In this document: positions 97 to 14,988 of the stretch, piece after piece
Layout of the letters: the number at the start of each line of letters is the position of its first letter
Position numbering within the stretch: position 1 is the stretch's first letter
Assembly (NCBI GenBank): GCA_963701775.1
Contig: CAVPBH010000018.1
Location: forward strand, 184,568-248,567
Source: an uncultured Chloroflexia bacterium
GTDB lineage: Bacteria; Chloroflexota; Anaerolineae; JAAYZQ01
Direction: 5' to 3'
Length of the DNA stretch: 64,000 nucleotides
The notes under the pieces: generated by a model
The model's database searches: none
Told to the model about the DNA's origin: nothing
What the model saw: only the letters and a program-made list of their open reading frames with translations
Made by a program: the position numbers and the translations under genes

Positions 97-1014
97 CTAT
101 TCCTCCGACACCAGCTCGATCACGCCGGCCATCCACTGCGCCCGGCCGCGGTTGGGGAGGACGAGGACGACCTGCTGGCCCATCTGGGCCAGCACGGCGC
201 CCCTGGCTTCGACTGCGGTCAGCGTGTGCTCCGCCCCAGAGGCGTCGCGTACCAGCAGGGTGTCGAAGCCGGGATCGGCCACAATACTCTCCAGGCCCGG
301 CCCCTCGATGCGCGAGGCAGTCTTGGCCTTCCGCACCTGACCGTCGACCTCGCTGTGCAGCATGACGTCAGTCTGCTCGATCGTCGCGCTGGTCGTCGGC
401 CCCAGCAGCAGCCGGCCGATCGAGGTGCGGTAGCCATCCAGAGTGAGCGGCCTGTCCGGGCCGACGACGATGATGCGCCACACTCCTTTCAGCCAGGTGG
501 AGACGTGCAGGTTCTCCGCGGCAAACCGCACGCCGTCCACGTGGGGCAACAGAAGCGCGTCGGCAGTCAGGTTGTCCCGCTCGACGGTGATCAAGCCCTC
601 GTCGCGAGAGGCGAGGGTTACGCTCTCGAACTCGGTCACGCCCTGCCCGGCCAGAAAGTCGAGCAGCGCCACGTGGGTGCCGGGCTGGTCGCGGTAGGGC
701 AGGATCTCATTCACGGGGATGTAACCCGGCTCGGGCACGTCACCCTGCAGCAGGATCAGGTCGTCGAAGGGCACGTTGGCCATCTCTGCCGAGCCGTGAT
801 CGTCGTGGCAGGTAGCGCACGTGTGGAACTTGTCCGGTTCGTGGCACTCGACGCAGTCGTTCATCGTCTCGGCCTCTTCGGCCAGCATCGCCCACGGGAA
901 GTTGAACACGGAGCGGGCCGGAGCTGCCACTCTTGCTCCCACCACCACCGCCACCGCCGCGCCACCCACCACCAGCGCCGCCAGGACTGCCAGTATCAAC
1001 CAGGTTCTCCTCAC
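97..1014 (-). CDS. membrane-anchored dihaem c-type cytochrome with two C-terminal ~85-aa beta-rich modules
   Basis: 305-aa ORF with an N-terminal TM helix (WLILAVLAALVVGGAAVAVVV). It has two CxxCH motifs (CVECH, CATCH) followed by two copies of a module also present in the next-but-one genes. The start is GTG with GGAGAGGAGG 7 nt upstream. Confidence 0.6.
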   Translation of the reverse strand: MRRTWLILAVLAALVVGGAAVAVVVGARVAAPARSVFNFPWAMLAEEAETMNDCVECHEPDKFHTCATCHDDHGSAEMANVPFDDLILLQGDVPEPGYIPVNEILPYRDQPGTHVALLDFLAGQGVTEFESVTLASRDEGLITVERDNLTADALLLPHVDGVRFAAENLHVSTWLKGVWRIIVVGPDRPLTLDGYRTSIGRLLLGPTTSATIEQTDVMLHSEVDGQVRKAKTASRIEGPGLESIVADPGFDTLLVRDASGAEHTLTAVEARGAVLAQMGQQVVLVLPNRGRAQWMAGVIELVSEE

Positions 1015-1033: not shown

Positions 1034-1825
1034 TCATCTTGCCCCCAGCCACACCAAACCAGCCACGATCGACAAGAGCAGTGTCCCCAAAGCAACTCCA
1101 TCCAGCCACGTGGCATGCACCTCGCGCAGGAATGTACGCGTCGCATGCTTGCCAAAGCAGCGGCCTTCCATCGACACGGCCAGCGCATCCACCTTGCCCA
1201 ACGCCGAGACCAGCAGCGGCAGGACGAACTGCCGGGCCAGGGTCAAGAACCGGCGCGGGCTCCGCACGTCATAGCGCACGCCGCGCGCCAGTTGGGCGTT
1301 GTAGACAATCTGGCCCTCCTGCTCAAAGGTCGGCACAAGCCGCAGCGCGGTGATGAGCGCGAATCCGTAGCGGTAGGGCATCCCGGCGCGCATGAGCGCG
1401 TAGGCCAGGTCGCTGGGCTCGGTGGTCAGCACAAACAGGTAGCTCAGCAGGATCACGCTGAGGAAGCGGCCGGCGACGTAGACGCCCGCCTCCACCCCAC
1501 CGGCGGTGACGGCCAGCGACCCCACCGTAGCCCATGTGGCCCCTTCGCGCACGAACAGAACCTGGAGCAATCCCAGCAGCAGCGCCGTGCTGACGAACAG
1601 GCGCGCGCCGCGAAGGCGGACCAGCCGCACGCCGGCTATCGGGAACCCAGCCAACAGCAGCATCACCGCCCCCGCCACCGCCCACGGGCTGCGCACCACA
1701 AAGACAAGGACCGTGCCCAGGATCAGCCAGGCCGCCTTGGTAAGCGGATGCAGGCGGTGGAGGAAGGAGTTGCCGGGATGGTAGGCGATGCGTGTGGCCT
1801 GCGGCCCGGTGCGTCTAGCAGACAT
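1034..1825 (-). CDS. ecfT: ECF transporter T component (EcfT/CbiQ family)
   Basis: Polytopic membrane protein with the LHRLHPLTK motif and a C-terminal ARGVRYD signature typical of CbiQ/EcfT. The ATG at 1825 has a GGAAAGAG RBS. The longer ORF-track start at 1900 is probably a spurious extension. Confidence 0.8.
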   Translation of the reverse strand: MSARRTGPQATRIAYHPGNSFLHRLHPLTKAAWLILGTVLVFVVRSPWAVAGAVMLLLAGFPIAGVRLVRLRGARLFVSTALLLGLLQVLFVREGATWATVGSLAVTAGGVEAGVYVAGRFLSVILLSYLFVLTTEPSDLAYALMRAGMPYRYGFALITALRLVPTFEQEGQIVYNAQLARGVRYDVRSPRRFLTLARQFVLPLLVSALGKVDALAVSMEGRCFGKHATRTFLREVHATWLDGVALGTLLLSIVAGLVWLGAR

Positions 1826-1938
1826 AGGCGCTCTTTCCGAGGGCTCGCAGCTGGTCGAACGCCTGGCCGGTGGGGGCGTCGATGGCAATCGTGCCTCCAT
1901 GGAAGAAGAGCAGGCGGCTGGCGTAGCGGCGCGTGACC

Positions 1939-3273
1939 TCAGGCGCGTGGTTGACCATGATCACCGCGCCGCCCCCGCGCAACGTGTTCCCCCAGCAGGC
2001 CGAGCAGGAAAGCAGCGTTGGCGGGGTCCTGGCCGATCAGCACCTCGTCAAGCAGGATCAGGCGCGGGGCGTAGCTCAGCACCGAGAGCAGGTTCAGGCG
2101 GCGCTTCTGGCCGTAGCTGAGGCGATAGGGATGGTCTCCGCGCCGGTCGCCCAGGCCACAGCGGATCAGCAGCTCCCCGACGCGGTCCTGCGTCGCTGCG
2201 GTCAGCTTGCCGAAGTTGCGGGCGGCAAAGGTTGCCTCCTCCCACACGCTGTCGGCGAAAAGCTGGTGATCCGGGTTCTGGAAGACATAGCCCACCTGCC
2301 CGGCCATCTCCGAAACGGGCGTCTGCCGGGTGTCGTGGCCCATCACCTCGACCCGGCCCCCGCTGGGCCGGCGCAGCCCCAGCAAGCAATGCAGGAAGGT
2401 GGTCTTGCCCGAGCCGTTGTCGCCCATGATCGCCACGAACTCGCCGGGCTGCACCTCCAGCGAGAGCCCGTGCAGGACAGGGCGGCCGTTGTAGCCGGCG
2501 TCCAGGTCCTCGACCTGGACGAGGGAGGAAACGCGCGAAGGGACAAAGGGCGAACCGGCACGGGGGCCCTGCTCCTGCTCCCTGTCGCTTGGCGGCATAG
2601 CGCCATCGCGGACGATCCGGCCGTCCTCCATCTCGACCAGGCGCGGGTGGAAGCGCCGCAGGTAGTCCACCTTGTGCTCGATGACAATGACCGTGATGCC
2701 TGCTTTCTCCCGGATATGTTCGATGACGCCGAACACCTCGGCCGTGGCCGTGGGGTCCAGGTTCGAGGTCGGCTCGTCGAAAATGAGCACCTGGGGCTTG
2801 GCTGCCATCATCGCTGCGATGGCGACCTTTTGCTTTTCCCCGCCGGAGAGGGTGGCCAGTGCCCGGTCCTGCAGATGCTCCGCGCCGACGATGCCCAGCG
2901 CCCAGCTCATCCGCGCGCGGATCTCGTCGCGGGGCAGGCAGCGGTTTTCCAGGCCAAAGGCGACCTCGTCGCCCACGGTCAGGGTGCAGAACTGGGCCTC
3001 GGGGTTCTGCTGCACCAGGCCGACGATCTCGGCGGCGTCGTAGATGGGGCTGTTGCGCACATCGATCCCGCCGACGGTGACGCATCCCTCGGCCTGACCG
3101 TCGAACTGCCGGAAGAGATATCCGCCGATGGCCAGCGCCAGCGTGCTCTTGCCACAGCCCGACGGCCCGGTGACGACCAGGAACTCACCCGGCTCGACTT
3201 TCAGAGCCAGGTCGCGCAAGGCATACGTCTCGCTTCCCCGGAAGCGGAAGCTCAGCCCTTCGACGGAAATCAT
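1939..3273 (-). CDS. ecfA: ECF transporter ATPase, fused duplicated EcfA1-EcfA2
   Basis: 444 aa with two ABC ATPase domains. The Walker A motifs are GPSGCGKST and GDNGSGKTT, with LSGGEKQ and LSYGQKRR signatures and Walker B DEPTS/LLDEV. The stop overlaps the start of the next gene. Confidence 0.85.
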   Translation of the reverse strand: MISVEGLSFRFRGSETYALRDLALKVEPGEFLVVTGPSGCGKSTLALAIGGYLFRQFDGQAEGCVTVGGIDVRNSPIYDAAEIVGLVQQNPEAQFCTLTVGDEVAFGLENRCLPRDEIRARMSWALGIVGAEHLQDRALATLSGGEKQKVAIAAMMAAKPQVLIFDEPTSNLDPTATAEVFGVIEHIREKAGITVIVIEHKVDYLRRFHPRLVEMEDGRIVRDGAMPPSDREQEQGPRAGSPFVPSRVSSLVQVEDLDAGYNGRPVLHGLSLEVQPGEFVAIMGDNGSGKTTFLHCLLGLRRPSGGRVEVMGHDTRQTPVSEMAGQVGYVFQNPDHQLFADSVWEEATFAARNFGKLTAATQDRVGELLIRCGLGDRRGDHPYRLSYGQKRRLNLLSVLSYAPRLILLDEVLIGQDPANAAFLLGLLGEHVARGRRGDHGQPRA

Positions 3274-4682
3274 CGGACCTCGATGCGCTCTACCCGGGCG
3301 GCCAAGACCTCGCCGTCCATGCGGGCCAGGGCAAAGGTCACGTCGGCCTCGCCGATCACGGTGAACAAGCGCAGCTCGTCATCAGCCAACACTTCGCTCA
3401 GCGGCAGCGAGAGGAGTCCGGTACTTGTGTAAACCAAGACCGTCTCAGCCGTGCCCCGAGGTTCCATCGCCGCCAACACCTTGCCCAGGGGCACGCCCTG
3501 CAGTTTGCGCGGACCGTCGCCCATGTCGAGGCGGGTGCTGTCCATGTCGAACTGCCAGTCGTCGGGATCGTAGGGTGAAGGCGCATCCAAGGCGCCGCTC
3601 ACCTCCAATGTTGAGGCGCCGACCACGACCAATTCCTGCACACCGCGTACCCAAGCTTTGCTGTTCAGCGCGCCGACGACGTTGTACGAGGCGTCGTCGC
3701 CCTCGCCTTGGGGCGAAAGCAGCAACGCCTCGTTGTCGCGCACTTCATCGAGGCCGATGAAAAAGGCGTAGCCATCGGTGGCGTGCACCAACAGCAGCGT
3801 GGCTGCGGGCTGAGGCTGGGCAGCGGCGAGAAGCTCGCGGACAGGCACACCCTTGTACTGGCCGGTCACCTCGCGCAGCGTGCCTTCCGCCGTGGTCGTG
3901 CCCAGGTCACCGTGCTCGGTAGGATAGTCGTAGGGCGTGGCCACGGCCCCGCCAATGTGGACCGTCGCCGGGCCGCGAAGCGCGCCGCGCAGGTACACCG
4001 CCAGCACCACGGTGAGCAGGCCTGCGACGACTAGGAAGATCGGGTAGGCGCGGCGGTTCATCGGTACTGGCGCCGCATCCTTGACCACGCCGGCGCGGCG
4101 CAGGGCGCTGAGCAGCCCCCGGCTCAGCACCCCGGCAAAGAGCACGCCGGAGAGCAAGGCCACGCCCGCCACCAGCAGCATCGCCCAATAGGCCAGCGTG
4201 TCGGCCGGCACCGAGGCAAACAGCTGAAAGACGAACACATTGGAGGCCGCGGCCAATCCCCCGGCCAGGCAGTAGGCGACCAGCGAGTCCTTGTGGCGGA
4301 AGGGAAAAAAGCCGAGGTCGACCAGCATCCCGGCGACGATGTCCACCAGCACCACCAACAGGCCGTGGGTATTGCCGGTCAGCAGCTCGACGCCACCCTT
4401 GAGCAGGCCGGTGATCGTGCCTGCGCCCTGTTTGCGGGTCAGACCCACGGCCAGGGTCAGCCACAGCACATGCAGTCCGGCCGCCCACTGCGTCGTGCCC
4501 GCGAAACCGAAAACCGACTGGAATACGTCGCCGACGGCGTTGACATAGGTGCTCACCACGCCGCCGAGCGCGGCCAGGGCAGCCATCATCAACAGGTCAC
4601 GGGTGGAGTAATAGGTACGTCGCTGAATCACTTGTACCCCCCGGCGGGCTTGGGCGTGGATCAGGCCATGCTCCACGCCCAA
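3270..4682 (-). CDS. ECF S-component-like membrane protein fused to two extracytoplasmic beta-rich modules
   Basis: The N-terminal ~170 aa has 5-6 TM helices and resembles ECF S components (TTQWAAGLHVLWLTLAVGLT...). The C-terminal ~280 aa holds two copies of the module seen in the 97-1014 and 4764-6446 proteins. The likely true start is the internal Met at ~4589. Confidence 0.55.
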   Translation of the reverse strand: MGVEHGLIHAQARRGVQVIQRRTYYSTRDLLMMAALAALGGVVSTYVNAVGDVFQSVFGFAGTTQWAAGLHVLWLTLAVGLTRKQGAGTITGLLKGGVELLTGNTHGLLVVLVDIVAGMLVDLGFFPFRHKDSLVAYCLAGGLAAASNVFVFQLFASVPADTLAYWAMLLVAGVALLSGVLFAGVLSRGLLSALRRAGVVKDAAPVPMNRRAYPIFLVVAGLLTVVLAVYLRGALRGPATVHIGGAVATPYDYPTEHGDLGTTTAEGTLREVTGQYKGVPVRELLAAAQPQPAATLLLVHATDGYAFFIGLDEVRDNEALLLSPQGEGDDASYNVVGALNSKAWVRGVQELVVVGASTLEVSGALDAPSPYDPDDWQFDMDSTRLDMGDGPRKLQGVPLGKVLAAMEPRGTAETVLVYTSTGLLSLPLSEVLADDELRLFTVIGEADVTFALARMDGEVLAARVERIEVR

Positions 4683-4763: not shown

Positions 4764-6446
4764 CTACTTGACCTGGATCTCGACTACACCCTTCACCTGC
4801 ACGCTGCCGGCGAAGCCGGGCAGGACGGTGCTGAAGCCGCCCTTGCTGCGGAACGAGACGATGCAGTCGGCACATGCCAGTACGTCCGCCAGCGGGACCT
4901 CGGCCGTATAGCCGTCGTCGGCGACAAAGACCAGCGTCGTGGCATCGGCGGCGGGCGCGGCCATCTCCAGCAGCTTACTCATGGAGACGCCGGTGTAGGT
5001 CTCGGTCTCGCCCGACTTGTTGGTCGACTGCGCTTCCATGGTCTCCATGGCCAGCACATCCGCCTCGAGCCAGCCGATCTCCTGGCCCACCTTGCCCGTG
5101 ATCTTGAGCGCGGCGCCCTCGGGGATGCCCCCGGCGGGCGCCTCGGCGGGGGTGCCGCCGGAGATCTGGAGCTCGACGAGGCCCTTGACCTGGAGCTTGC
5201 CGCCCTGGCTCGGCAGGACAGAGCGAAGGCCGCCCTCGGGATCGAAGGCGACGATGCAGTCGGCGCAGGCTGCTACGTCGGCCACGGGAATCTCGGCGGT
5301 GAAACCGTCACTCGCCACCAGGACGAGGGTGGCGTCCGCGGGAGTGTTGGCCGCCTCGAGCAGGATGCTCATGAGCACGCCGGTGTAGGTGGTCGTCGTG
5401 CCGTCCTTGCCGGTGTAGGGCACGTCGATCGTGCCGAGGGCCTTCAGCTCCTCCTCGGTCCAGGACAGCTCCTGCGCAGGTCCGGTGAGCTTGAGCACGG
5501 GCGCAGCGGGTGCCGGGGTGGTGCTGGCCGGTGCGCCGGGGTAGAAGAGGGACTGGCCGAATTCGTCGACGCCAAAGTCGCCGATCATGGCCTGCACATC
5601 GTCCGACAGGATCCACTCGACAAACTGCATAGCGAGATCATACTCGACGCCCGGGTGCGTGTCTGGGTTGACGGCCATGACGCCGTAGGGGTTCAGGAGC
5701 TTCTTGTCGGGGTTCTCGGTCAGGGTCGCGCCGCCGACCACGATGGTCAGGTCGGGCAGCTTGTCCTCCATCGCCAGCCAGGTTCCGCGGTCGCTGAGCG
5801 TGTAGGCCAGGCTCTCCTGCGAGAAGAGGAGCGTGTCTCCCATGCCTTGGCCGAGCGACTTGTACCAGGCCATCTCTGCCGTGGGGGTGATCGCCGCCGA
5901 GGCCCACAGGGAGATCTCCTTGTTGTTGGTGCCCGACTTGTCGCCACGGCTGGCAAAGGTCGCCTCGGCCGCCGCGATGGCCGTCAGGGCGTCCACCGAG
6001 CTGGTCATCCCGGCTACCGCGGCCGGGTCAGCCGTGGGGCCAACGAGGACAAAGTCGTTATACATGACGTCAAAACGCTCCTTGGCGTTGCCGTCGGCGA
6101 CGAACTTGTCCTCCGATTTGCGGCTGTGGACGAGCAGCACGTCGGCGTCGCCATTGGCGCCCATCTCTAGCGCCTGGCCGGTGCCCACGGCGATGTAGTC
6201 CAAGTTGCAGTCGCAGACCTCCTCAAACTGAGGCACGAGGTAGTCCAGCAGGCCGGTATCGGCCGTGCTGGTGGTGGTCGCCAGGATGAGATCGGCTTCC
6301 TCGGCTGTCGTTGGCTCGGCAGTCGGCTCGGCGACAACCGCCGTCGGCTCGATCACTTCTGGCTCCTCTGTGGCGGCCCCGCAGCCGGCAATCAGGCCGG
6401 CGAACAGGGCCAGGACGATACACAACGCAAACAGTTTCTTGGACAT
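4764..6446 (-). CDS. tupA: TupA-type tungstate/molybdate ABC substrate-binding lipoprotein with two extra C-terminal modules
   Basis: Signal peptide plus lipobox (LIAGC). The PBP-like domain carries the TupA-characteristic ATTTSTADTGLLD motif. Two tandem ~110-aa modules follow, also visible as a ~370-bp direct repeat at the DNA level. AGGAGGAAG RBS. Confidence 0.75.
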   Translation of the reverse strand: MSKKLFALCIVLALFAGLIAGCGAATEEPEVIEPTAVVAEPTAEPTTAEEADLILATTTSTADTGLLDYLVPQFEEVCDCNLDYIAVGTGQALEMGANGDADVLLVHSRKSEDKFVADGNAKERFDVMYNDFVLVGPTADPAAVAGMTSSVDALTAIAAAEATFASRGDKSGTNNKEISLWASAAITPTAEMAWYKSLGQGMGDTLLFSQESLAYTLSDRGTWLAMEDKLPDLTIVVGGATLTENPDKKLLNPYGVMAVNPDTHPGVEYDLAMQFVEWILSDDVQAMIGDFGVDEFGQSLFYPGAPASTTPAPAAPVLKLTGPAQELSWTEEELKALGTIDVPYTGKDGTTTTYTGVLMSILLEAANTPADATLVLVASDGFTAEIPVADVAACADCIVAFDPEGGLRSVLPSQGGKLQVKGLVELQISGGTPAEAPAGGIPEGAALKITGKVGQEIGWLEADVLAMETMEAQSTNKSGETETYTGVSMSKLLEMAAPAADATTLVFVADDGYTAEVPLADVLACADCIVSFRSKGGFSTVLPGFAGSVQVKGVVEIQVK

Positions 6447-6488: not shown

Positions 6489-7226
6489 CTAATACACCAT
6501 CTCTCCACGTACAAAGGCGGCCGTGCGCGGATCGCGCGGCGAATCGAAGAAGGTCTGGACATCCTCCGCCTCGGCGACCTGGCCGTCGAGCATGAGCACG
6601 ACGCGGTGGGCCAGGCGCCGCGCCTGGAAGACGTTGTGGGTGACCATGACCATGGTCGTGCCCTGCTCGGTGTTGAGCGTCCGCACGATATCCTCGATCA
6701 GCCCCACGTTGTAGGGGTCGAGGTTCGCCGTGGGCTCGTCCAGCAGGAGGACGTCCGGCCGCAGGACCATCGCCCGCGCCAGCGCGACGCGCTGCGCCTC
6801 GCCCCCGGAGAGGGTGCGCGCCCGCTGGCCGGGGATGCCGCCGAGGCCGACCTTTTCCAGCGTGGCCTGGACCAGGGCGCGGGTCTCGGCCCTGCGCTCG
6901 CCGCGCAACTGCAGCCCGTAGAGCACGTTGGCCCAGACGCTGCGGTTCAGAAGCAGTGGTCGCTGGAAGACCATTGTCACGCGCCGGCGCTCGGCGACCG
7001 GCGCCCCCTGGCCCGGGCCATACGCGCGGCCGAGAAAGCGGATGGTGCCGGACGAGGGCGATTCGAGGAAGTTGAGGAGACGCAGGAGAGTGGACTTGCC
7101 CGCGCCGCTGGGGCCGACCAGGCCGAGGATCTCGCCGCGCCGCACCTCCAGGGCGTCCACCCGCAGGACAGCCCGGCTGCCGTATGTCTTGGTCACTTGC
7201 TGCAGCTCGTAGACCGCATCGCTCAT
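6489..7226 (-). CDS. tupC: ABC transporter ATP-binding protein (TupC-like)
   Basis: Walker A GPSGAGKST, signature LSGGEAQR and Walker B LLLDEPT. Its position in the operon matches TupC. Confidence 0.8.
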   Translation of the reverse strand: MSDAVYELQQVTKTYGSRAVLRVDALEVRRGEILGLVGPSGAGKSTLLRLLNFLESPSSGTIRFLGRAYGPGQGAPVAERRRVTMVFQRPLLLNRSVWANVLYGLQLRGERRAETRALVQATLEKVGLGGIPGQRARTLSGGEAQRVALARAMVLRPDVLLLDEPTANLDPYNVGLIEDIVRTLNTEQGTTMVMVTHNVFQARRLAHRVVLMLDGQVAEAEDVQTFFDSPRDPRTAAFVRGEMVY

Positions 7227-7936
7227 TCGTCGAAGGTCCTTCCCTGCAGCCGCAGCATGATCACGTTGGTCAGGAACGAGATGGAGAGCAGGATGGCACC
7301 GAGAGCGATGGCCAAGTCAAACTCGCCCTGGCGCGTGCCGAGGACGATGGCGGTGGTGAGAACTCGGGTCGAGTGCTGGATGTTGCCGCCGACGAGCATC
7401 ACGGCACCGACTTCGGAGATGATGCTGCCAAAGCCGGCGATGATCGACACGATCACCCCGATGCGCGCTTCGGAGAGGATAGCCGCGGCCACCTGCCAGC
7501 GCGTCGCACCGAGAGCTTGCACCTGCTGGCGGAGAGCCGGATCGACGCCCATGACGGCGGCCATGGTGAAGCCGGCGACCAGCGGGAAGGCGATGATCGT
7601 CTGGGCAAAGATCATGGCCCCGGGCGTAAAGAGGTTGGGAATCCACGACCACCCCAGGCTGCCCAGCGGCCCGCTGCGGGAGAGGAGGAGGTAGACGAAG
7701 AGGCCGACCACGACCGGCGGGAAGCCCATGCCGGTGTAGAGGAGGGCGATGACGAGCCGCCGGCCCATGAAGCGGCTCAGCCCCATGATGACGCCCAGCG
7801 GGATGCCAATGACCGTGCTGAAGAGCAGCGCGATGCCCGACACGCGAAGGGACATCACGACGATCTCCAGCAGGTCCGGGTCCAGGTGGGCGATCAGGCG
7901 GATGGCCTCGACGAGGCCCTTCCAGATTTCCTCTAT
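7223..7936 (-). CDS. tupB: ABC transporter permease (TupB-like, ModB family)
   Basis: Binding-protein-dependent permease with EAA-like loop and GATRWQV. Conserved N-terminal sequence extends upstream of the first ATG at 7858. An AGGAG RBS precedes an in-frame ATA at 7936, with no ATG, GTG or TTG available there. The start is uncertain: 7858 or 7861 if a canonical start codon is required. Confidence 0.7.
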   Translation of the reverse strand: MEEIWKGLVEAIRLIAHLDPDLLEIVVMSLRVSGIALLFSTVIGIPLGVIMGLSRFMGRRLVIALLYTGMGFPPVVVGLFVYLLLSRSGPLGSLGWSWIPNLFTPGAMIFAQTIIAFPLVAGFTMAAVMGVDPALRQQVQALGATRWQVAAAILSEARIGVIVSIIAGFGSIISEVGAVMLVGGNIQHSTRVLTTAIVLGTRQGEFDLAIALGAILLSISFLTNVIMLRLQGRTFDE

Positions 7937-8432
7937 GGTGGTCTCCTACCCAGTCAAGCTCTTCCGTGTGCCGATCGGGCGTGTTCCATCTTCCAGGCAA
8001 CAAAAAAGCGCCTCGAAAGCGAGGCGCTGTGGCTGCCGGGATAGGCACGGATCTCCAGAAGAGTCCGTGCCTGCGGCACATGTCAGCGCATCTCCTTTCC
8101 AAGGATGGGAGGCGTGGCCGTTTCCAGCCAGGCCCTACCGGCCTCGCTCCATAGGATCCCCCGGGTCCTTCCCTGGTCCCGGAAGGAGCGCCCGTAGGCA
8201 ACGAGGCTCGGAGATGCTGCGATTTGGTTGTTCAGGAACTGTGAAAAATGTAACACGCCAGAGCGGGGATGTCAAGCGCGGCGCGGCGATTGGAGCGTGG
8301 GCCGGCTGGCACTGTGCGCACAGGTACTATGGCTGAGGATCGCTTTTTTTGGGGGAAACAATTACCGATTGAGTCACTGTGGGGATGGAGGGGATATGGA
8401 CACGGGCGATTGAATCACTGTTGATGTCTCCT

Positions 8433-8584: not shown

Positions 8585-9814
8585 TTGCCCTTCCAGGATG
8601 ACTTTGGCCGCGCCATCAATTACCTGCGCGTTTCGGTCACCGACCGCTGCAACCTGCGCTGCGTCTACTGCATGCCGCCCGGCGGCGTGGACAAACAGCC
8701 GCACGAACATGTCCTCAGCTACGAGGAGATGGCCCTCGTCATCCGCGCCGCAGCCGAGACCGGCATCCGGAAGGTCCGGCTGACGGGCGGGGAGCCCCTC
8801 GTGCGCCTCGGCCTGGCCGAGTTCGTGCGGATGATCGCCGCCATCCCCGGCATCGACGACCTTTCCATGACGACGAACGCCACGCTCCTGGCCGGGCATG
8901 CCCGGGCGCTGGCCGACGCCGGCCTGAACCGCGTCAACATCAGCCTGGATACGCTCCAACCCGAACGCTTTGCCAGCATGACACGCCGGGGCAAGATCGA
9001 GGATGTCTGGGCAGGCGTCGAGGCGGCCCGGGCGGCGGGCCTCACCCCCATCAAGTTCAACGCCGTCGTGATCCGCGGCCTGAACGACGACGAGGTACCC
9101 AGCCTGGCCGAGAAGAGCTTGACCGACGGCTGGCACATGCGCTTCATCGAGTGGATGCCGATTGGCGACACAGCCGGCTGGGCGGCCGGCGGAGCGGTGC
9201 CGGTCGCCGAGATTCGCGCGACGATCGAGCAGCGCCTTGGTCCCCTGCAACCGGCCCCCGGCCCCAGGGGGAACGGCCCGGCGCGCTACTTCCGGCTGCC
9301 CGGAGCCACGGGCACCATCGGCTTCATCGGGGCGCTGAGCGAGCACTTTTGCGCGTCGTGCAACCGCCTCCGGCTCACCGCCGACGGACGCCTGCGGCCC
9401 TGTCTTCTGGCCGAGCAGGAGGTCGACCTGCGGCCCACGCTGCGGGCCGGCGGCGGCCTGGAAGCGGTCCGGCAGCTCCTGGCGCAGGCCATCCAGTCCA
9501 AGCCCATGTGCCACCACCTGGACGAGGCACGGGTGCCCCAGGGCCGCACGATGTCCCAGATCGGGGCTAGGGGCCGAGACGGCCCCACGAGGGGTATACT
9601 ATGCAGCTTTCCCACGTCGATGAATCGGGCCGGGCACGCATGGTGGACGTTGGCGCCAAGGCCGATACGGAGCGGGTGGCGATTGCCCAGGCGCGCGTCA
9701 CCCTGCTTCCCGCCACGCTGGCCCTCATCCGCACCAACGCCGCGGCCAAGGGCGACGTCCTGGCCGTGGCCCAAATCGCCGGCATCCAGGCCGCCAAGCG
9801 GACGCACGAGCTGA
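8585..9814 (+). CDS. moaA: GTP 3',8-cyclase MoaA (radical SAM); the C-terminus appears frameshifted
   Basis: Carries the [10 protein letters not shown] radical-SAM motif and is full-length MoaA-like up to ...GRTMSQIG. The ORF then runs on for ~80 aa, overlapping moaC. One extra G in the atcggggctag run (~9568) would give the canonical ...MSQIGG* ending at ~9574. Confidence 0.85.
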
Positions 9815-10086
9815 TCCCGCTCTGCCACCCTCTCCTGCTCACCCACATCTCGGTCGAGCTGGCGCCGGAGCAGTCCGGCGACGAGGCGTGGATCGACCTC
9901 AAGGCGACCGTCCGCACCACGGGCAAGACGGGCGTCGAGATGGAGGCGCTGACGGCCGTCAGCATCGCGGCCCTGACCGTCTACGACATGTGCAAGGCCG
10001 TGGACCGCGGCATGTGCATCACCGGCGTGCGCCTCGTCCACAAGAGCGGGGGCAAGAGCGGGGAATGGAACCGGGAGGAAGCATGA
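9601..10086 (+). CDS. moaC: cyclic pyranopterin monophosphate synthase MoaC
   Basis: 161 aa with MoaC family sequence throughout ([13 protein letters not shown]...HKSGGKSG). Confidence 0.9.
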
Positions 10087-10535
10087 GCCAGGAGGGACGA
10101 GTGCTCGCCGTGTGCACCAGCCAGAAGAAGGGCGTTCCGAAGCGGGACATCGGCCGGGCCGAGCTGCGCGCCGACTGGGGTATCGTGGGCGACGCCCATG
10201 CGGCCGACTGGCACCGCCAGGTCAGCCTGCTCGCCTGGGAAAGTATCGAGAAGATGCGCGCGCTGGGGCTCAACGTGCGCGCCGGCAGCTTTGCCGAGAA
10301 TATCACCACCACCGGCCTCTGCCTGGTCGATCTGCCCATCGGGACGCGGCTGCGGATCGGCACGGCGCTGGTGCAGGTGACGCAGATCGGCAAGGTCTGC
10401 CACGACAAGTGCGCCATCTACTACCAGGCAGGCGACTGCGTCATGCCCCGCGAGGGCATCTTTGTCGCCGTCCTCGAGGGGGGGATGGTGCAAGCCGGCG
10501 ACGCCGTGCAGGTGGTGCCGGTGACGGCCGATTGA
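10083..10535 (+). CDS. MOSC domain-containing protein
   Basis: ~150 aa beginning [13 protein letters not shown], with the [13 protein letters not shown] signature. The ATG at 10083 overlaps the moaC stop. The longer ORF-track version starting at 9888 is a spurious extension. Confidence 0.8.
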
Positions 10536-10549
10536 AGTAGGCCGCGAGA

Positions 10550-11266
10550 ATGAGCCGGACGGCGAGCTACTACGACCTGCGCGATGCGCTGGCCCTGCCG
10601 GGCTGCCCGGTGTGCCGCTTGGCTGCGCGCGACGCCGAGCGCTATCTCGACGGCCTGTTGTGGGAGCACGTCACGGATCCCGGCGTCCGGGCCAAGGTCC
10701 GCCGCGCGCAGGGCTTTTGCCGCGACCATGCGCGGCTTCTCGACCGGGCCGGCGCGGCGCTGGGCGTGGCGATCCTGATGCAAGACGTGCTGCGCGCCGT
10801 GCTGGAAACCCTGGAAGGCGCGCACTTCCAGGCCCCGCCAGCGCTCTCGCTTCGCCGCGCACAGGAAACGCTCGACCCCGGCCAACCCTCGGCCGCAACG
10901 GCCGAGCTGGTGGCACGCCTGGCGCCCGGAGAACCCTGCCCGGCCTGCGCCCGCGCGGGCGAGATGGAGACGGTCTACCTGGACACGCTGGTAGAGCAGT
11001 TGATGGGCGAAGAGGGACTGCTGGGCGCGTACGGGGTATCCGGCGGTCTGTGCCTTCCCCATCTCCGGCTGGCACTGGTCCGGCTGCGCGAGCCGGCCGT
11101 CTTTGAGGCACTGGTGAGTGCACAGCGCGACATCTGGGGACGCCTAGAGGCCGACCTGCGCGAGCAGATCCGGAAGAACGACTACCGGTTCCGCGACGAG
11201 CCGTGGGGCGACGAAAGCAATGCCTGGCTGCGGGGGCTGGCTGCCGTGAGCGGAGGGCTGCCCTAG
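10550..11266 (+). CDS. hypothetical protein with paired CPxC...C-x2-H motifs
   Basis: 238-aa ORF in the Moco operon orientation. It has two CPVC/CPAC motifs with downstream Cys/His (CRDH, CLPH), suggesting a metal-binding protein. No family could be assigned from sequence alone. Confidence 0.5.
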   Translation: MSRTASYYDLRDALALPGCPVCRLAARDAERYLDGLLWEHVTDPGVRAKVRRAQGFCRDHARLLDRAGAALGVAILMQDVLRAVLETLEGAHFQAPPALSLRRAQETLDPGQPSAATAELVARLAPGEPCPACARAGEMETVYLDTLVEQLMGEEGLLGAYGVSGGLCLPHLRLALVRLREPAVFEALVSAQRDIWGRLEADLREQIRKNDYRFRDEPWGDESNAWLRGLAAVSGGLP

Positions 11267-13950
11267 ATCGTCTTCAGCCGTGGGTTCAGAATCCGGTCCA
11301 GAGCCGATGCCAGGAGGGCAAAGCCGAGGCCTGTCAGGATGCAGAGTGCCAGCGGCTCGATGAGCGCCACGTAGTTCCCCTGCCAGACCTCGGTGCGCAG
11401 CGAGGTGTAGATCAGGTTACCCCAGGTGGGCAGGGTGCCGCTGACGCCAAAGATCGCGAGCGTCGCCTCCAGAAAGACAAAGCCAGGCACGAGGATCGCC
11501 AACTGAGGGACGATCATGGGCGCGATGCGCGGGATCATGTAGCGCAGGATGATGCGCCCGCTGCCCGCGCCATAGGCTTGGGCGGCCTCGATGTAGGAGG
11601 CCCCCCGGACCTGCAGGAAGGCCGCCCGATAGGCTTTGACCGGCGTGCCCAGCGCGCTCACGAGGACCACGCTGCCCATCACCAGCCAGAGGCTGAAGCC
11701 AAAGAGACGCTGGAGGATCACGGCGATGGCCAGGACCGGGAGGACCATCGTGGCCTCCGTCAGCCGCTGGATCAGGCCGTCGAGCCAGCCGCCGCGCCAG
11801 GCGCCCGCGGCGGCCAACCCCAAGGAGATGAGCGTAGTCACGATGCCCCCGCCCAGGCCGATGACCAGGGCGGCGGGGGCTCCCCAAAGCAGGGCAGACC
11901 AGAGGTCACCCCGCTGGTCGTCCGTCCCTGCCCACCCCCAGACGCGCCCGACCAGGATGAGCTGCGCGTCCAGATCCGATTCCGTCTCAAACCCCAGCGC
12001 GTCCAGCTCGAGGGTGTAGGTCCCACGCAGGCTCTGCCCCTTCTCGTCTAGGGGACCGGTGAAGAGCGCGGTGTAGGGGGCCAGCCCGCCCTGGCCGCCG
12101 CCGCTGCCACTGGTGCGGAACTGGCCGGCGAGGGCGTGTGACGCCAGGTAGCTGGGGGGGATATTCTCCGAGAAATCGTATGCCTCGTCGGCCACGACGC
12201 CGCGGGCCGTGAGGGGAACCTCCTGCCCTCCAGGCATGATCCACCGGGGCGTGACAAAGACCTTGGACGATCCGCGCGCAAAGAAGCGCAGGACCATCTC
12301 CTGGGGGATCCCCTGGTAGGGATAATCGAACGTGAAGGTCAGGCGCAGGTGGCGGGCCGCGCCTTCCGCCGGCAGCACTTCTTTGACCGCCTGCCCGCTG
12401 CGCGAGTCCAGCGCGATGGTGGAGGGCAGGTCGACGGAGCGGAACCAGTTGACCCACACCGGCAACGCGTTCTGGGGAGGTGGGACCTCGCCCACCGCCA
12501 CGGGCGCGCCTTCGATCGTGGCAGGGCCGCGCGGGATCGCGACCAGGGCATAGACGGACATGGCCAGCAGACCGGCGATGATGGCCAAGCCGGCGACGGC
12601 GGAGGGATCGCGCAGCAGCTCGCGGAGGAAAGCTGCCAGGCCGGCGGCGCTTCGCCGAAAAGAGTGCCAACGCTCCGCCAGCCCGGCCCTCAGATCGCCG
12701 GCACTCGGGCGCCGGAGAAGGCTCCGCCGCTTTTTCCAGGCAGGCCGCTCCGGCGAGAGCGCGCCTTGCCTCGCCCGCCGCCGGGCGGTCACACGCATGG
12801 TCTGGCCGTTCCCACCCAGGCGGATGCGCGGATCCACCATGGTGTAGATTAGGTCCAGGAGAATGACCAGGAAGCCGAGCAGGTAAGCAAAGATGACGAC
12901 CGTGCCCACGGCGACCACGATGTCGTAGGTCCACAGCGCCTGGACGTAGGCCTGGCCGATGCCCGGCCAATTGAAGAAGAACTCGAGCGCCGTCGTCATC
13001 TGCCAAAAGCCGAGGAGCGTCAAAGAGAATGAGGTAATGACGTAGGGCAGCGTCGGGCGGAGGAGGTAGCGCCGCTCCACCATGCGGGGCGCCATGCCCT
13101 GCGCCACGGCCAGCTCGACGTACTCCTCGGTGGAAAAGACCAGGAAGAACGCCCGCCAGGCGGACACGCACTGGAGGAATAGGGTGAGCAGGATGGCCGT
13201 CACCGGCAGGATCATGTGCTTGGCGATCTGGAGCGCGGCCTGTCCCCTGGTCTCGGGGGGTACCGTATCGAATAGACCGCCGAAGGGCAGCAAGTGCAGG
13301 CCAACGCCAAAGACAAAGACCAGGATGATGCCGTGCATCCAGCTCGGGATGGAGGCGAGGGGGGTCAGCCAGCCGACGATCCGGTCAGGCCATTTGCCGG
13401 GCCGGCGGGCCAGGGCGAGGGCCAGCGGAATGCCAAGCAAGAAGACGACCAGGTCGGCCAGACCTACCAGGAGCAGGGTGAGGGGCAGCCGGGAGGCAAG
13501 GATGTGCGTCACGCGAAAGCGGGTGTAGGAGGGGCCCATCAGGGCGGAGAGGCTCGTATAGGTGCTCACGTCTTCGCTGTCCTTGGCGAGCGCCTCACCC
13601 CACCGGAAAGCCAAGGCGTTGCCGAGCCAGTGCAAGTGACGCGCCAGGTAGGGTTGATGCAGGCCGGCGGCCTCCTCCATGGCCTGCTTGCGGATCTCGA
13701 CTTCCTCTGCGGAGATATCGCCCCACAACCCTGCCGCGACGCGATACTCGGCACCGTACCAGATATCGTTCGCGACGACTGTGTCGATCGCCCCGCTGCG
13801 ATTCGCCAGCACGATGGTGACAAAGACTCCGAGCACGATGGTCAGCCCGATGGTGACCAGCCTCACCAGCAGGTATCTTGCCAGCTTGAGGACTCCCCGC
13901 CCGGCCGAGGAGCCCCTTGCTCCCTCTCCGGACTCGGCTCGGCTCGTCAT
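11263..13950 (-). CDS. fused ABC permease (OppB/DppB-like N-terminal TMD plus OppC/DppC-like C-terminal TMD) with a ~400-aa extracytoplasmic insert
   Basis: Two binding-protein-dependent permease domains lie in one 895-aa protein. The ATG at 13950 has GGAGG 7 nt upstream. The ORF-track start at 14331 adds 127 spurious residues. No cognate ATPase or substrate-binding gene is nearby. Confidence 0.7.
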   Translation of the reverse strand: MTSRAESGEGARGSSAGRGVLKLARYLLVRLVTIGLTIVLGVFVTIVLANRSGAIDTVVANDIWYGAEYRVAAGLWGDISAEEVEIRKQAMEEAAGLHQPYLARHLHWLGNALAFRWGEALAKDSEDVSTYTSLSALMGPSYTRFRVTHILASRLPLTLLLVGLADLVVFLLGIPLALALARRPGKWPDRIVGWLTPLASIPSWMHGIILVFVFGVGLHLLPFGGLFDTVPPETRGQAALQIAKHMILPVTAILLTLFLQCVSAWRAFFLVFSTEEYVELAVAQGMAPRMVERRYLLRPTLPYVITSFSLTLLGFWQMTTALEFFFNWPGIGQAYVQALWTYDIVVAVGTVVIFAYLLGFLVILLDLIYTMVDPRIRLGGNGQTMRVTARRRARQGALSPERPAWKKRRSLLRRPSAGDLRAGLAERWHSFRRSAAGLAAFLRELLRDPSAVAGLAIIAGLLAMSVYALVAIPRGPATIEGAPVAVGEVPPPQNALPVWVNWFRSVDLPSTIALDSRSGQAVKEVLPAEGAARHLRLTFTFDYPYQGIPQEMVLRFFARGSSKVFVTPRWIMPGGQEVPLTARGVVADEAYDFSENIPPSYLASHALAGQFRTSGSGGGQGGLAPYTALFTGPLDEKGQSLRGTYTLELDALGFETESDLDAQLILVGRVWGWAGTDDQRGDLWSALLWGAPAALVIGLGGGIVTTLISLGLAAAGAWRGGWLDGLIQRLTEATMVLPVLAIAVILQRLFGFSLWLVMGSVVLVSALGTPVKAYRAAFLQVRGASYIEAAQAYGAGSGRIILRYMIPRIAPMIVPQLAILVPGFVFLEATLAIFGVSGTLPTWGNLIYTSLRTEVWQGNYVALIEPLALCILTGLGFALLASALDRILNPRLKTI

Positions 13951-14095
13951 TCCTTCGCCTCCGATGCTGTGCGTCTGCTGTGAAACGCCGCGGGGGCGCC
14001 GGGCGTTCAGGGACAACCGGGCGCAGGCGCGCATGCCTCGATCTTGCCACGCGGGCGCACGTATGGCAAAATGGGAAGGACCAAAGGAGGTTGTC

Positions 14096-14988
14096 ATGAA
14101 CAGGAATAAGAGGAGCGATTCGGCGTGGCCCAACTCGAAGGAGGCGCCGTCCTGGCGGCCGGGCAGCACGCCACAGCGGACGCCGCCGCGCCGCTCCTCG
14201 CCCGGCTGCGGAAGACGGCTGCGTGCCTGGTGGGACGATTCCGGCTCCATGGCCGGGCTGATCGCGCTCGGCGTGTCGATGCCGGTGAGTATCGTCCTGT
14301 GCATCGTGCTCTGGATCGCCCACAGCCGCACGAACTGGCTGGTGGGGCTGACCCTGACGCTCTTTGGGCTGCCAATTCTCGTCTACGGGCTGATGCTGAC
14401 GCGGCGCCGCAACCGGCAGGTCGCAGGGGAGGGGGGCTGCATGATGCTGGGGGGCATCCTGCTCGGAGTGGCCGCCCTCGTCTTTGCCTTCTTCGTCTTC
14501 TTCAAGCCGGAGCACCGCATCGCTGAGATGCTCATGCTCAGCTTCCAGCGGGGCGTCAAGAACAAGGACTTTACAGTCGAGCTCGCCGTGGAGCCGGCGG
14601 AATACCGGGTGGGGGAGCGCGGCGCCGTGACGGCGACATCACCAACCGGAGCGACGTCACGGTCGAGTTCTCGGAGCTGGTGCTGGGGATGCCGAAGGAC
14701 TTTTTCGACGGCTTTGTGGTGGACTTTCCGACGACGCCGCCCCACCTGGAGTACAACGAGCAGTCGATCGGCGGGGACACGATCGTGCTCTCCGGCGAGG
14801 GGACGCGCATCGCGCCCGGGGAGACTTTTACGGCGCGGGTGGAGATCGTGGCCAACCTGCCGGGCAACTACAGCGGCAAGTTCACCTTCGTGCCGGTGTT
14901 CTCCGAGGAGTCGCAGGCGCTCGGGGCGGTGCAGGTGAAGGAGAAGCTGACGGTGACGATCCTGCCGGAGCGCCGGGACAGGCCGTAA
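14096..14988 (+). CDS. membrane protein, frameshifted at ~14630
   Basis: The ATG at 14096 has an AAAGGAGG RBS. The N-terminal half has 3-4 TM helices in one frame up to ...GERGAVT. The product then continues coherently only in the +1 frame (DITNRSDVTVEFSELVLGMPKDFFDGF...) to the stop at 14988. Confidence 0.5.

Follow-up and report, generated by a model that had tools for sequence, protein, structure and literature searches.

An ECF S component with a seventh transmembrane helix and two extracytoplasmic modules, linked to the Moco/Tuco riboswitch in Anaerolineae

ECF transporters are defined by lacking a substrate-binding protein, and their S components end at helix 6 (PMC11109136). The closest described transporter is YkoEDC of Bacillus subtilis, a group-I ECF system for thiamine/HMP. 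It is a dedicated module under the control of a riboswitch, the THI-box, and consists of an S component, a fused double ATPase and a T component. Its S component, YkoE, contacts thiamine through Y46, W49, E77, Q95 and D131 (PMC5037267). Among soluble domains, the closest described one is PruR (7KOS, 7KOU, 7RKB; PMC11194511), a free protein of Proteobacteria that regulates the c-di-GMP enzyme DcpA. Its SUOX fold is small and cysteine-less, and the protein is found outside the cytoplasm. It clamps a pterin between a Tyr (Y104) and a Trp (W160), with a hydrogen bond from an Asn (PMC11194511), and its truncated cleft is already thought to be too small for whole Moco.

The locus described here lies in a window of 64,000 nucleotides, meaning the whole stretch of DNA that was analysed. 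It shares with YkoEDC the Pfam family of the S component (PF09819), the operon logic and the riboswitch control of a dedicated ECF module. However, YkoE stops after helix 6, whereas the S component studied here continues into a further transmembrane (TM) helix and two domains outside the cytoplasm. Of the residues that contact thiamine, four of five differ, a Moco/Tuco riboswitch is found instead of the THI-box, and, unlike in YkoEDC, there are extra surface partner genes. The added domains resemble PruR in their small, cysteine-less SUOX fold outside the cytoplasm, and the first of them has a conserved Tyr and a C-terminal Trp at matching motif positions. In contrast to PruR, they are shorter and occur in duplicate, a transporter is encoded in the same protein or the same operon, and control is by a Moco riboswitch. 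The P-W motif that replaces the Cys hairpin is a PruR feature, and the operon partner of PruR (a DcpA-type c-di-GMP enzyme or a sensor kinase) is absent here, the neighbours being ECF subunits, phosphoesterases and Tup genes. A conserved S component with a seventh helix and two outward domains breaks the rule by which ECF transporters are defined.

The S-component fusion gene and its topology

An uninterrupted open reading frame at 3270..4682(-) had a mechanical extent of 470 aa. The gene itself most likely starts at GTG 4631 and occupies 3270..4631(-), giving 453 aa plus the stop codon. This start was inferred from the homologues, nearly all of which were 453 aa long with a first residue corresponding to GTG 4631, and from the GGGGGG standing before it; the NCBI gene call was 439 aa. 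The gene was also supported by its PF09819 match and by an AF2 model. The full-length fusion was detected in at least 120 clusters at 90% identity and in 80 species-level genome loci, with 38-85% identity. All homologues came from metagenome-assembled genomes (MAGs) or metagenomes. Because the fusion was conserved at full length across clusters and loci, it was shown to be one gene, and a frameshift artefact, a two-gene artefact and a chance open reading frame were all ruled out.

Three parts were shown in the protein: an ECF S component with six helices, one further TM helix and a pair of beta-rich modules outside the cytoplasm. In the AF2 model (mean pLDDT 78.9), the core helices spanned residues 10-41, 46-65, 70-84, 90-108, 117-139 and 145-179. 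This core (residues 1-180, 4092..4631(-)) was followed by a basic cytoplasmic linker (residues 180-194) and by the seventh TM helix (residues 195-217, 3981..4049(-)), which was recognized both in the model and by hydropathy and a positive-inside count. The two modules came next (residues ~221-338 and 339-453), in a block with pLDDT values mostly between 80 and 97. The pTM was 0.48, and hence the placement of the modules relative to the membrane pocket was not predicted. Within the membrane part, Lys and Arg were found only at the N-terminus and in loops 66-69, 109-116 and 180-194, while loops 42-45, 85-89 and 140-144 had none. This pattern gives an N-in core, so that the seventh helix puts the modules outside. 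The outside location agrees with the presence of homologous modules in lipoproteins with lipoboxes. The only Cys of the protein, C121, lies within the membrane core, residues 180-453 being Cys-free. Helix 1 contains A17xxxA21, A20xxxG24 and G23xxxS27. The EcfT-contact motif of this helix is AxxxA in group II and S/AxxxI/VV in YkoE, and the sequence cannot tell which of the three, if any, touches EcfT.

The initial annotation had proposed, as a hypothesis from size, topology and gene context, an S-component-like domain fused to two periplasmic modules. It was to be refuted if the halves were separate genes or if the TM core belonged to another transporter family. Neither occurred, as the gene is single and conserved and its context is a dedicated ECF module, and the assignment is supported. 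The search for homologous fusions that it suggested found them at full length. The two beta-rich modules also held, and they are now identified as cysteine-less SUOX/PruR-fold domains. Several details had to be corrected: the core has ~180 aa and six helices (not ~170 aa and 5-6), the soluble part ~235 aa (not ~280 aa), the TM helix joining them had been missed, and "periplasmic" is better worded as extracytoplasmic.

PF09819 matched with 69.3 bits (gathering threshold 25.2) over residues 28-145 of the 470-aa frame, and YkoE (5EDL) was both the best structural and the best sequence match. The invariant pocket residues of the core were Q48, H54, K78, E82, H89, N131 and Q136. D105 was invariant only in a related one-module family, the two-module proteins having Asp in 67 and Glu in 8 of 75. 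The five thiamine contacts of YkoE, in the order given above, aligned to A51, H54, E82, A100 and Q136, meaning that one of five was kept. H54, E82 and Q136 were present in all 75 two-module proteins, A51 in 74 and A100 in 72. The S subunit belongs to the YkoE class, and its binding pocket, judged by this alignment, is remodelled.

An ordinary YkoEDC-type thiamine/HMP transporter with an unusual decoration would be one explanation, and JGI names the protein a thiamin/HMP permease subunit. In its favour are the PF09819 family, the 5EDL match and the ykoEDC-like gene layout. In addition, an APH-like kinase adjoins some relatives, and the APH family includes thiamine kinase. Against it stand the poorly kept thiamine contacts and the riboswitch data: Rfam scans of the window and of 16 loci detected no TPP riboswitch (THI-box), and a Moco riboswitch occupies that position. 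We consider this explanation very unlikely and reject the JGI annotation.

The extracytoplasmic modules

Module 1 (residues 221-338, 3618..3971(-)) has a cysteine-less SUOX/PruR fold with an invariant DGY and a K-A-W motif. Module 2 (residues 339-453, 3273..3617(-)) is a divergent copy of the fold, as shown by its secondary-structure pattern in the AF2 model, its BLAST register with the two modules of a TupA fusion (see below), HMM cross-hits and its invariant residues. It has neither DGY nor KxW; instead, W359 and K376-x-Q378-G were invariant. The modules qualified as a SUOX Moco-domain fold and also as the small, cysteine-less, secreted SUOX fold seen in PruR. Sequence profiles of either module found nothing significant among PDB sequences, so the link to SUOX/PruR was made through structure and through the profile of a partner lipoprotein. 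PF00174 scored the partner lipoprotein at 79-84 bits and the S fusion at 23.1 bits, above and just below the gathering threshold of 24, respectively. Module 1 was homologous to this PF00174-positive partner (hhalign 98%).

The Tyr of DGY was invariant in 75 of 75 two-module and 30 of 30 one-module proteins. The Trp of K-A-W (YWV) was invariant in the one-module family and present in 69 of the 75 two-module proteins, with Gln in the other 6. These Tyr and Trp residues stand at motif positions corresponding to those of PruR, with Asp in module 1 at the position of the PruR Asn. It is possible that DGY and KAW correspond to Y104 and W160, but this was inferred from motif position and profile alignment, and no residue-level superposition was available.

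The modules share with SUOX-family molybdoenzymes (SorA, YedY/MsrP, sulfite oxidase; PF00174) the Moco-domain fold and the motifs GV-L, DG(Y) and W-V-x-x-I. They differ in lacking a Mo-ligating Cys, Tat export and, within one chain, any domain for dimerisation or haem, and their Cys hairpin is shortened. In the alignment, an invariant Lys of the partner modules takes the place of the ligand Cys of YedY (RMRC), and by hhalign the corresponding region of module 1 falls in a stretch without Cys. Since the ligand Cys is absent and the partner proteins carry lipoprotein rather than Tat signals, a true Moco-containing oxidoreductase domain was ruled out. A generic envelope domain common in these genomes was not supported either, as no other open reading frame in ~1.2 Mb of flanking DNA, which does not cover whole genomes, carried the module outside this system.

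Operon make-up, riboswitch linkage and conserved neighbours

The stop codon of the S gene overlaps by 4 nt (ATGA) with the start of a fused, YkoD-like double ECF ATPase (1939..3273(-)). This protein had two ABC_tran domains and scored 320 bits with TIGR04520 (NCBIfam ECF_ATPase_1, cutoff 315). A CbiQ-family T component followed at 1034..1900(-) (PF02361, 102 bits), as it did after the ATPase in the other loci; its true start is likely 3' of the start of the open reading frame. The fourth gene (97..1014(-)) encodes an N-terminally anchored protein of 305 aa with two SUOX-like modules, identified by conservation, hhalign and synteny. Its dihaem motif CxxCH...CxxCH..HG was invariant in 53 sequences, and both of its modules matched the profile of the SUOX-module lipoprotein (OxMo, hhalign 94-96%).

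Upstream of the S gene lie the genes of a Tup-type transporter. The first is a TupB-like permease (7223..7858(-); NF038017 249 bits, and 138 bits, below cutoff, with the TupB model), followed by its ABC ATPase (6489..7226(-), ABC_tran). The third is a TupA-like oxyanion-binding lipoprotein (4764..6446(-); PBP_like_2 155 bits; NF041772 224 bits, below cutoff) with two SUOX-like modules of its own (PF00174, E 6.6e-11), which aligned with those of the S fusion (E 3e-6). Divergent neighbours in the window were moaA, moaC and a MOSC gene.

A Moco/Tuco riboswitch aptamer (RF01055) was found at 8076..8225(-), at the head of the operon ahead of tupBCA, with 65.7 bits (gathering threshold 36). Elsewhere, RF01055 scored 73.4, 70.5 and 66.1 bits in loci L001, L002 and L126, and in the first two it stood immediately 5' of the S gene. 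A survey model built from three copies was run on 80 species-level Anaerolineae loci. A riboswitch on the strand of the S gene was detected in 69 of them, with a median gap of 102 nt to this gene and at most 700 nt in 68. Six of the 11 negative loci (L054-L057, L060 and L074) formed one subclade at ~51-53% identity. Among one-module metagenome loci, RF01055 preceded the operon in 4 of 80 (L125, L126, L128 and L137). Linkage to the riboswitch was thus shown across lineages. No Moco riboswitch was found in the Bacillota and Asgard loci L083-L088; it is not expected in archaeal loci. The riboswitch at the operon head suggests expression when the Mo/W cofactor is short, although both the ligand response and the direction of switching are inferred. 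The gene context of the initial annotation held, with a dedicated ECF module of fused double ATPase (over the ECF_ATPase_1 cutoff) and CbiQ-type T component; the riboswitch control had been lacking and is added here.

The conserved gene order was S, ATPase, T, dihaem protein, an NPP-type lipoprotein phosphodiesterase and OxMo, complete in 38 of the 46 loci with enough downstream DNA, and the first three genes kept their order in essentially all loci. The phosphodiesterase had intact NPP catalytic motifs and a lipobox, and its N-terminal domain resembled module 2 of the S fusion (hhalign 71%, E 3.8e-5). The separate Tup-type oxyanion transporter often shared the operon. One-module versions of the system were found in Asgard archaea and Bacillota. 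In these, the position of the phosphodiesterase was taken by a non-homologous, secreted Metallophos phosphoesterase, which in L126 carried the module at its C-terminus. Some relatives adjoin cofactor genes or a Moco riboswitch: MobB followed T in L087 and L155, XdhC_C followed T in L111, and a molybdopterin oxidoreductase was adjacent in L086. A small APH/Bud32-like kinase was adjacent in 39 loci of relatives and was searched for but not found in the Anaerolineae loci. SLH-domain proteins occurred within the Bacillota clusters.

Two explanations concern the surface partners. In the first, the modules would be docking or scaffold domains for the surface components (S, TupA, dihaem protein, phosphoesterases, lipoprotein), or envelope anchors, without a ligand, and substrate would be caught only in the membrane pocket; it fits either kind of substrate. 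The module does occur on functionally unrelated partners (a substrate-binding protein, a protein resembling cytochromes and, C-terminally, the L126 Metallophos enzyme), the N-terminal domain of the phosphodiesterase resembles module 2, module 2 lacks the SUOX/PruR signature, and SLH-domain proteins are nearby in Bacillota. However, the module 1 residues kept in Anaerolineae, Asgard archaea and Bacillota (DGY and, except for Gln in 6 of 75, the C-terminal Trp) are those of the SUOX/PruR cofactor cleft and not a surface patch, and the minimal fold of PruR binds pterins. We regard this explanation as unlikely.

In the second, the system would work outward and deliver cytoplasmic cofactor to surface-located, Sec-exported SUOX-fold apo-proteins (the dihaem protein and the lipoprotein), giving an extracellular redox enzyme. 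None of the partners carries a Tat signal for its export, which means that cofactor loading, if there is any, could only take place outside, and the combination of dihaem and SUOX modules recalls SorAB and YedYZ-type enzymes. However, none of the modules has a Mo-ligating Cys, the dihaem protein is missing from one-module lineages, and ECF transporters are not known to work other than as importers. This explanation is very improbable.

Proposed substrate and comparison with known importers

We tentatively propose that the ECF system imports a compound related to Moco/Tuco, probably of the pterin type, and that the tethered domains capture it; we give this reading a probability of roughly 0.45. 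It is inferred and not backed by experiment. Inferred are the substrate (a pterin-type Moco/Tuco precursor or breakdown product, not an oxyanion), ligand binding by the modules and the hand-over. S, fused double ATPase and T form a dedicated module, all encoded in one operon as in group-I ECF systems. On the surface, the NPP-type lipoprotein phosphodiesterase, whose gene in this genome would lie just past the left edge of the window, would trim a phosphodiester- or pyrophosphate-linked cofactor, e.g. molybdopterin dinucleotide. The SUOX-fold modules on S, the free lipoprotein, the dihaem protein and TupA would bind the pterin part, and from the tethered ones the ligand would move on into the pocket of S within the membrane. 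S would then topple onto T, and ATP hydrolysis by the ATPase would reset the cycle.

The main rival, which remains possible, is that the ECF system imports an oxyanion (molybdate or tungstate), with the SUOX modules, and maybe the phosphatase-like proteins, as surface oxyanion traps, as for TupA. The usual targets of Moco riboswitches are genes for Mo/W transport and for Moco biosynthesis (RF01055 description; categories in PMC3766115). Phosphatases accommodate tungstate and molybdate in their active sites as analogues of phosphate. The two homologous modules on TupA, a tungstate-type binder, tie these domains at least as closely to oxyanion as to pterin capture, which also counts against the pterin reading. 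On the other hand, an oxyanion importer would duplicate the Tup transporter of the same operon, the nearest S component takes an organic heteroaromatic, and the pocket holds the invariant acidic E82 and an always acidic position 105 (Glu in 8 of 75 two-module proteins). In addition, two unrelated, catalytically intact phosphoesterase families and a kinase-like protein recur. An oxyanion needs neither, and these partners suggest an organic, phosphate-linked substrate. The neighbouring MobB and XdhC genes indicate the stage of the pterin cofactor and, with the Moco riboswitch linkage, speak for a pterin.

Further points weigh against the pterin reading. Module 2 lacks the Tyr/Trp signature, and the modules are small, ~115 aa and thus smaller than PruR. 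Free Moco and molybdopterin are very labile. The genome does not depend on salvage, as MoaA and MoaC are encoded next door, and the Anaerolineae loci lack the kinase-like partner.

A bolder version of the pterin reading, more probably wrong than right, is a first dedicated prokaryotic uptake (salvage) system for a molybdopterin-type cofactor, be it Moco, Tuco or a trimmed form. Surface phosphodiesterases would cut the dinucleotide or protein-released cofactor, the cysteine-less SUOX modules would act as extracellular chaperones for the oxygen-labile pterin-dithiolene, and the S component with its tethered domains would do the import. If true, the system would be common to Anaerolineae, some Bacillota and Asgard archaea. 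Nothing has been described for such cofactor scavenging, and prokaryotes are not known to have a transporter for Moco, for molybdopterin or for any pterin other than folates. How pterins cross membranes was still given as unknown in a 2026 review, and a 2013 survey of riboswitch regulons had no category for Moco uptake (PMC3766115). Our literature search turned up nothing relevant, either on a connection of ECF transporters with Moco, molybdate or tungstate or on extracytoplasmic domains in S components. The combination of Moco-riboswitch control, pterin-fold surface domains, phosphoesterases of two families and MobB/XdhC neighbours makes microbial Mo/W cofactor scavenging testable with defined genes. 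An oxyanion substrate, if true, would still make this the first ECF-type Mo/W transporter.

The fusion departs from the general S-component plan by everything beyond helix 6, and the toppling mechanism could naturally be tested on it. The Nik/Cbi ECF systems for metals (NikMN(K/L)QO, CbiMNQO) also have extra partners, but these are unrelated in fold and not fused through a seventh helix, and such systems transport cations, for which the N-terminus of the M subunit provides the binding site. The role proposed for the fused modules resembles that of the substrate-binding domains tethered to some classical ABC importers. In GlnPQ and OpuA, one or two tethered capture domains enrich the substrate locally and then deliver it to the translocator, and the same principle is proposed here. 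Those importers are of type I with PBP-fold domains, whereas the present one is of the ECF type (type III) with a SUOX fold. Unlike in GlnPQ and OpuA, the membrane-embedded S subunit of an ECF transporter is itself the high-affinity binder and must topple.

The S-component core and its topology

The open reading frame at 3270..4682 (-), predicted in the initial annotation, was real and uninterrupted (470 aa). Nearly all homologues were 453 aa long, and their first residue matched GTG 4631 in the window, which was preceded by a G-rich Shine-Dalgarno-like run. The gene is thus treated here as 3270..4631 (-) and its product as the S fusion; the NCBI call is a 439-aa version.

In an AlphaFold2 model, for which 56 homologues were used (mean pLDDT 78.9), residues 10-179 formed six membrane helices, and a basic linker (180-194) joined these to a seventh helix, TM7 (195-217). 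Two beta-rich modules (module 1, ~221-338; module 2, 339-453), the best-predicted parts of the protein, followed. The pTM was 0.48, so that inter-domain geometry was not predicted. Lys and Arg of the membrane region were confined to the N-terminus and loops 66-69, 109-116 and 180-194, with none in the alternate loops of the core. This distribution indicated an N-in/C-in core, as in solved S components, and therefore TM7 is inferred to put the modules on the extracytoplasmic side. Lipoproteins with lipoboxes carry homologous modules, which fits this location.

The membrane core had been proposed, as a hypothesis, to be an ECF S component. This held, and its class could be assigned: the core matched Pfam PF09819 (69 bits vs a cutoff of 25), the sole match of the family profile among all PDB sequences was Bacillus subtilis YkoE (5EDL, E 4.5e-12), and the Foldseek TM-score of the model to 5EDL was 0.76. 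These three results together confirm an S component of the YkoE class.

The protein search with the S fusion retrieved at least 120 clusters (71-100% identity, nearly all full length), and those with an organism name were all from Anaerolineae MAGs. When a single genome of each species was scanned, 80 loci were obtained, 38-88% identical and nearly all full length, 79 of them from Anaerolineae or Chloroflexota MAGs. A profile search found just 376 relatives among 1.84 billion cluster representatives. Three architectures occurred: a two-module fusion (~453 aa), a one-module fusion (~340-380 aa) and an unfused form (~190-210 aa). The one-module form was present in Asgard archaea (Loki/Promethearchaeota, Thor-, Hermod-, Hod-, Odin- and Kariarchaeia) and in Bacillota, e.g. 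Desulfotomaculaceae. The homologue sample consisted exclusively of MAGs or metagenomes, and all evidence presented here is computational. Database labels for the S fusion were no more specific than "ECF transporter S component" or thiamin/HMP permease.

The YkoE residues contacting thiamine, Tyr46, Trp49, Glu77, Gln95 and Asp131 (PMC5037267), aligned with Ala51, His54, Glu82, Ala100 and Gln136 in the S fusion. With only the Glu kept among these five positions, thiamine binding in the YkoE sense was rejected.

A different set of polar residues in the core (Q48, H54, K78, E82, H89, N131 and Q136) did not vary across the 75 two-module and 30 one-module proteins compared. D105, of the same set, was invariant in the one-module family; at this position, 67 of the two-module proteins had Asp and the other 8 had Glu. 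Because this pocket set is common to both architectures, they probably share one substrate class, an inference from sequence alone.

Cysteine-less modules of the SUOX/PruR fold

Module sequence profiles searched directly against the PDB gave no match. The sequence link from the modules to the SUOX/PruR fold is indirect, through a partner lipoprotein encoded by the last gene of the conserved operon. Module 1 aligned with this lipoprotein (hhalign 98%, E 2.5e-13), which in turn matched PF00174 (79-84 bits), SorA (2.7e-7), PruR (2.7e-5) and YedY (1.3e-3). The Mo-ligating Cys was absent: where YedY has the Cys of its RMRC motif, the partner modules had an invariant Lys in the alignment, and the single Cys of the S fusion, C121, lies within the membrane core.

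In module 1, DGY was invariant and a K-A-W motif was kept (73-75 species), with Gln instead of the Trp in 6 of 75 proteins; DGY and YWV were retained by the one-module family. PruR stacks the pterin ring between a Tyr, which SUOX proteins also have, and a C-terminal Trp (PMC11194511). The Tyr and Trp of module 1 may correspond to this pair, as inferred from motif position; a residue-level match of the pocket is unverified. Module 2 was a divergent copy of the module 1 fold, without the DGY and K-A-W residues.

Riboswitch control and operon context

The operon genes (7858 to 97) are all encoded on the minus strand. The operon is headed by a Moco/Tuco riboswitch (RF01055, 65.7 bits) at 8076..8225 (-), followed by genes for a TupB-like permease, an ABC ATPase, a TupA-like lipoprotein with two SUOX-like modules (4764..6446 (-)), the S fusion, a fused double ECF ATPase (AA) with its start overlapping the stop codon of S, a CbiQ-type T component (T) and, last before the window end, a 305-aa anchored dihaem protein (97..1014 (-)). 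This last protein had no Pfam match; it contained an invariant CxECH...HxCxxCHxxHG, a dihaem-c-like motif, and then two divergent SUOX-like modules. Its gene holds fourth place in the conserved S-AA-T operon, in Anaerolineae only. The two C-terminal modules of the TupA-like tungstate/molybdate-binding lipoprotein and the second module found in the L001 partner lipoprotein were nearly identical in type; even taken alone, this fusion of an oxyanion SBP with Moco-fold domains is unusual.

L003, the closest species-level relative (85% identity), had the same gene order, continued by an NPP-type phosphodiesterase lipoprotein (PDE) and the SUOX-module lipoprotein. Of the 46 genome loci that extended 5.5 kb or more downstream, 38 had exactly the order S, AA, T, dihaem protein, PDE, lipoprotein, and the other eight were small variants. 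The NPP metal and nucleophile motifs were kept in the PDE. Its gene (L001:14599-15789, L003:14553-15689) would be expected just left of window position 1, and its N-terminal domain (~130 aa) showed similarity to S-fusion module 2 (hhalign 71%, E 3.8e-5).

The divergent neighbours at 8585..10535 (+) were moaA, moaC and a MOSC-domain gene, and no second riboswitch was found ahead of them in the window. A DUF6062 protein gene (80 bits; 10550..11266 (+)) directly follows the MOSC gene. A 1022-aa ORF at 11263..14331 (-) has two BPD_transp_1 domains, i.e. a fused double ABC permease, and is unrelated to the S fusion.

At L001 and L002 (73-75% identity), RF01055 lay directly before the S gene, with no tup genes between. 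A covariance model built from three copies (window 8066-8235, L001 and L002) matched on the S strand at 69 of the 80 genome loci, with a median gap to S of 102 nt and 68 matches within 700 nt; one locus without a match had no upstream DNA. RF01055 was also upstream of four one-module operons, whose S proteins were closest to Bacillota proteins. No TPP riboswitch was seen in the window or the loci scanned.

Locus L005 had two more Moco riboswitch copies in tandem (7330-7472 and 7553-7687 (-)), on the opposite strand ~2 kb upstream of S; a divergent gene is presumably under their control. Riboswitch copies varied by a ~40-90 nt insertion, and some matches covered just ~95 nt (model positions 20-147). 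A P3-less riboswitch variant associated with the tungsten cofactor is known from the literature, and the short matches could represent this variant.

Across 83 loci of the one-module lineages, the gene upstream of S usually encoded a secreted or anchored Metallophos phosphoesterase, with weak best matches to cyclic-nucleotide phosphodiesterases and nucleotide pyrophosphatases. A SUOX-module lipoprotein (~186 aa) was often beside it, and at L126 the phosphoesterase itself bore a SUOX-like module. A small APH/Bud32-like kinase (230-270 aa) adjoined one-module S-AA-T operons at 39 loci of several lineages (e.g. L099:10506-11204, L136:4843-5637), its catalytic motifs intact and its catalytic-loop and IDxE-like motifs conserved; it was not found in Anaerolineae loci. 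MobB followed T at L087 and L155, and a molybdopterin oxidoreductase adjoined the operon at L086. At the Bacillota-like L111 (7267-9172), T was followed by a DUF364/DUF4213 'heavy-metal chelation' protein, a GGACT-family protein and an XdhC Rossmann-domain (XdhC_C) protein. By gene context, the MobB, XdhC_C and oxidoreductase neighbours point to Moco. Extracellular phosphoesterases recurred from two unrelated superfamilies, and such a non-homologous replacement, as inferred here, would be expected if the step itself is required.

Candidate substrates and the salvage reading

On this computational evidence, S-AA-T is a dedicated ECF importer under Moco-riboswitch control. Cysteine-less domains with the Moco/pterin-binding fold are present on its S subunit and on several of its surface partners. 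The substrate, binding and transport of this importer are inferred. The main rival to cofactor salvage, held less probable than salvage, is that the ECF system takes up molybdate or tungstate. It is best supported by the presence of the same modules on TupA and by the classical role of oxyanion transporters as Moco-riboswitch targets. However, it would be redundant with the co-operonic Tup system, and leaves the phosphoesterase and kinase partners unexplained. The modules could also serve as a scaffold only, which is compatible with either salvage or an oxyanion substrate.

Cofactor salvage is the best reading, held tentatively (probability ~0.45). In this reading, a phosphodiester-linked form of the cofactor would be trimmed by phosphoesterases at the cell surface, the SUOX-fold modules would bind its pterin part and pass it to the S membrane pocket, and the ECF module would import the ligand handed over. 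In the literature searched, no paper linked ECF transporters to Moco or described S components with extracytoplasmic domains, and, according to recent reviews, how pterins are transported is unknown. There is a substantial chance that the S-fusion system represents a new cofactor-salvage function. By analogy, it would parallel known cofactor salvage, in which the work of a hydrolase at the cell surface precedes uptake by a vitamin transporter. NadN and e(P4), which act ahead of PnuC, are an example.
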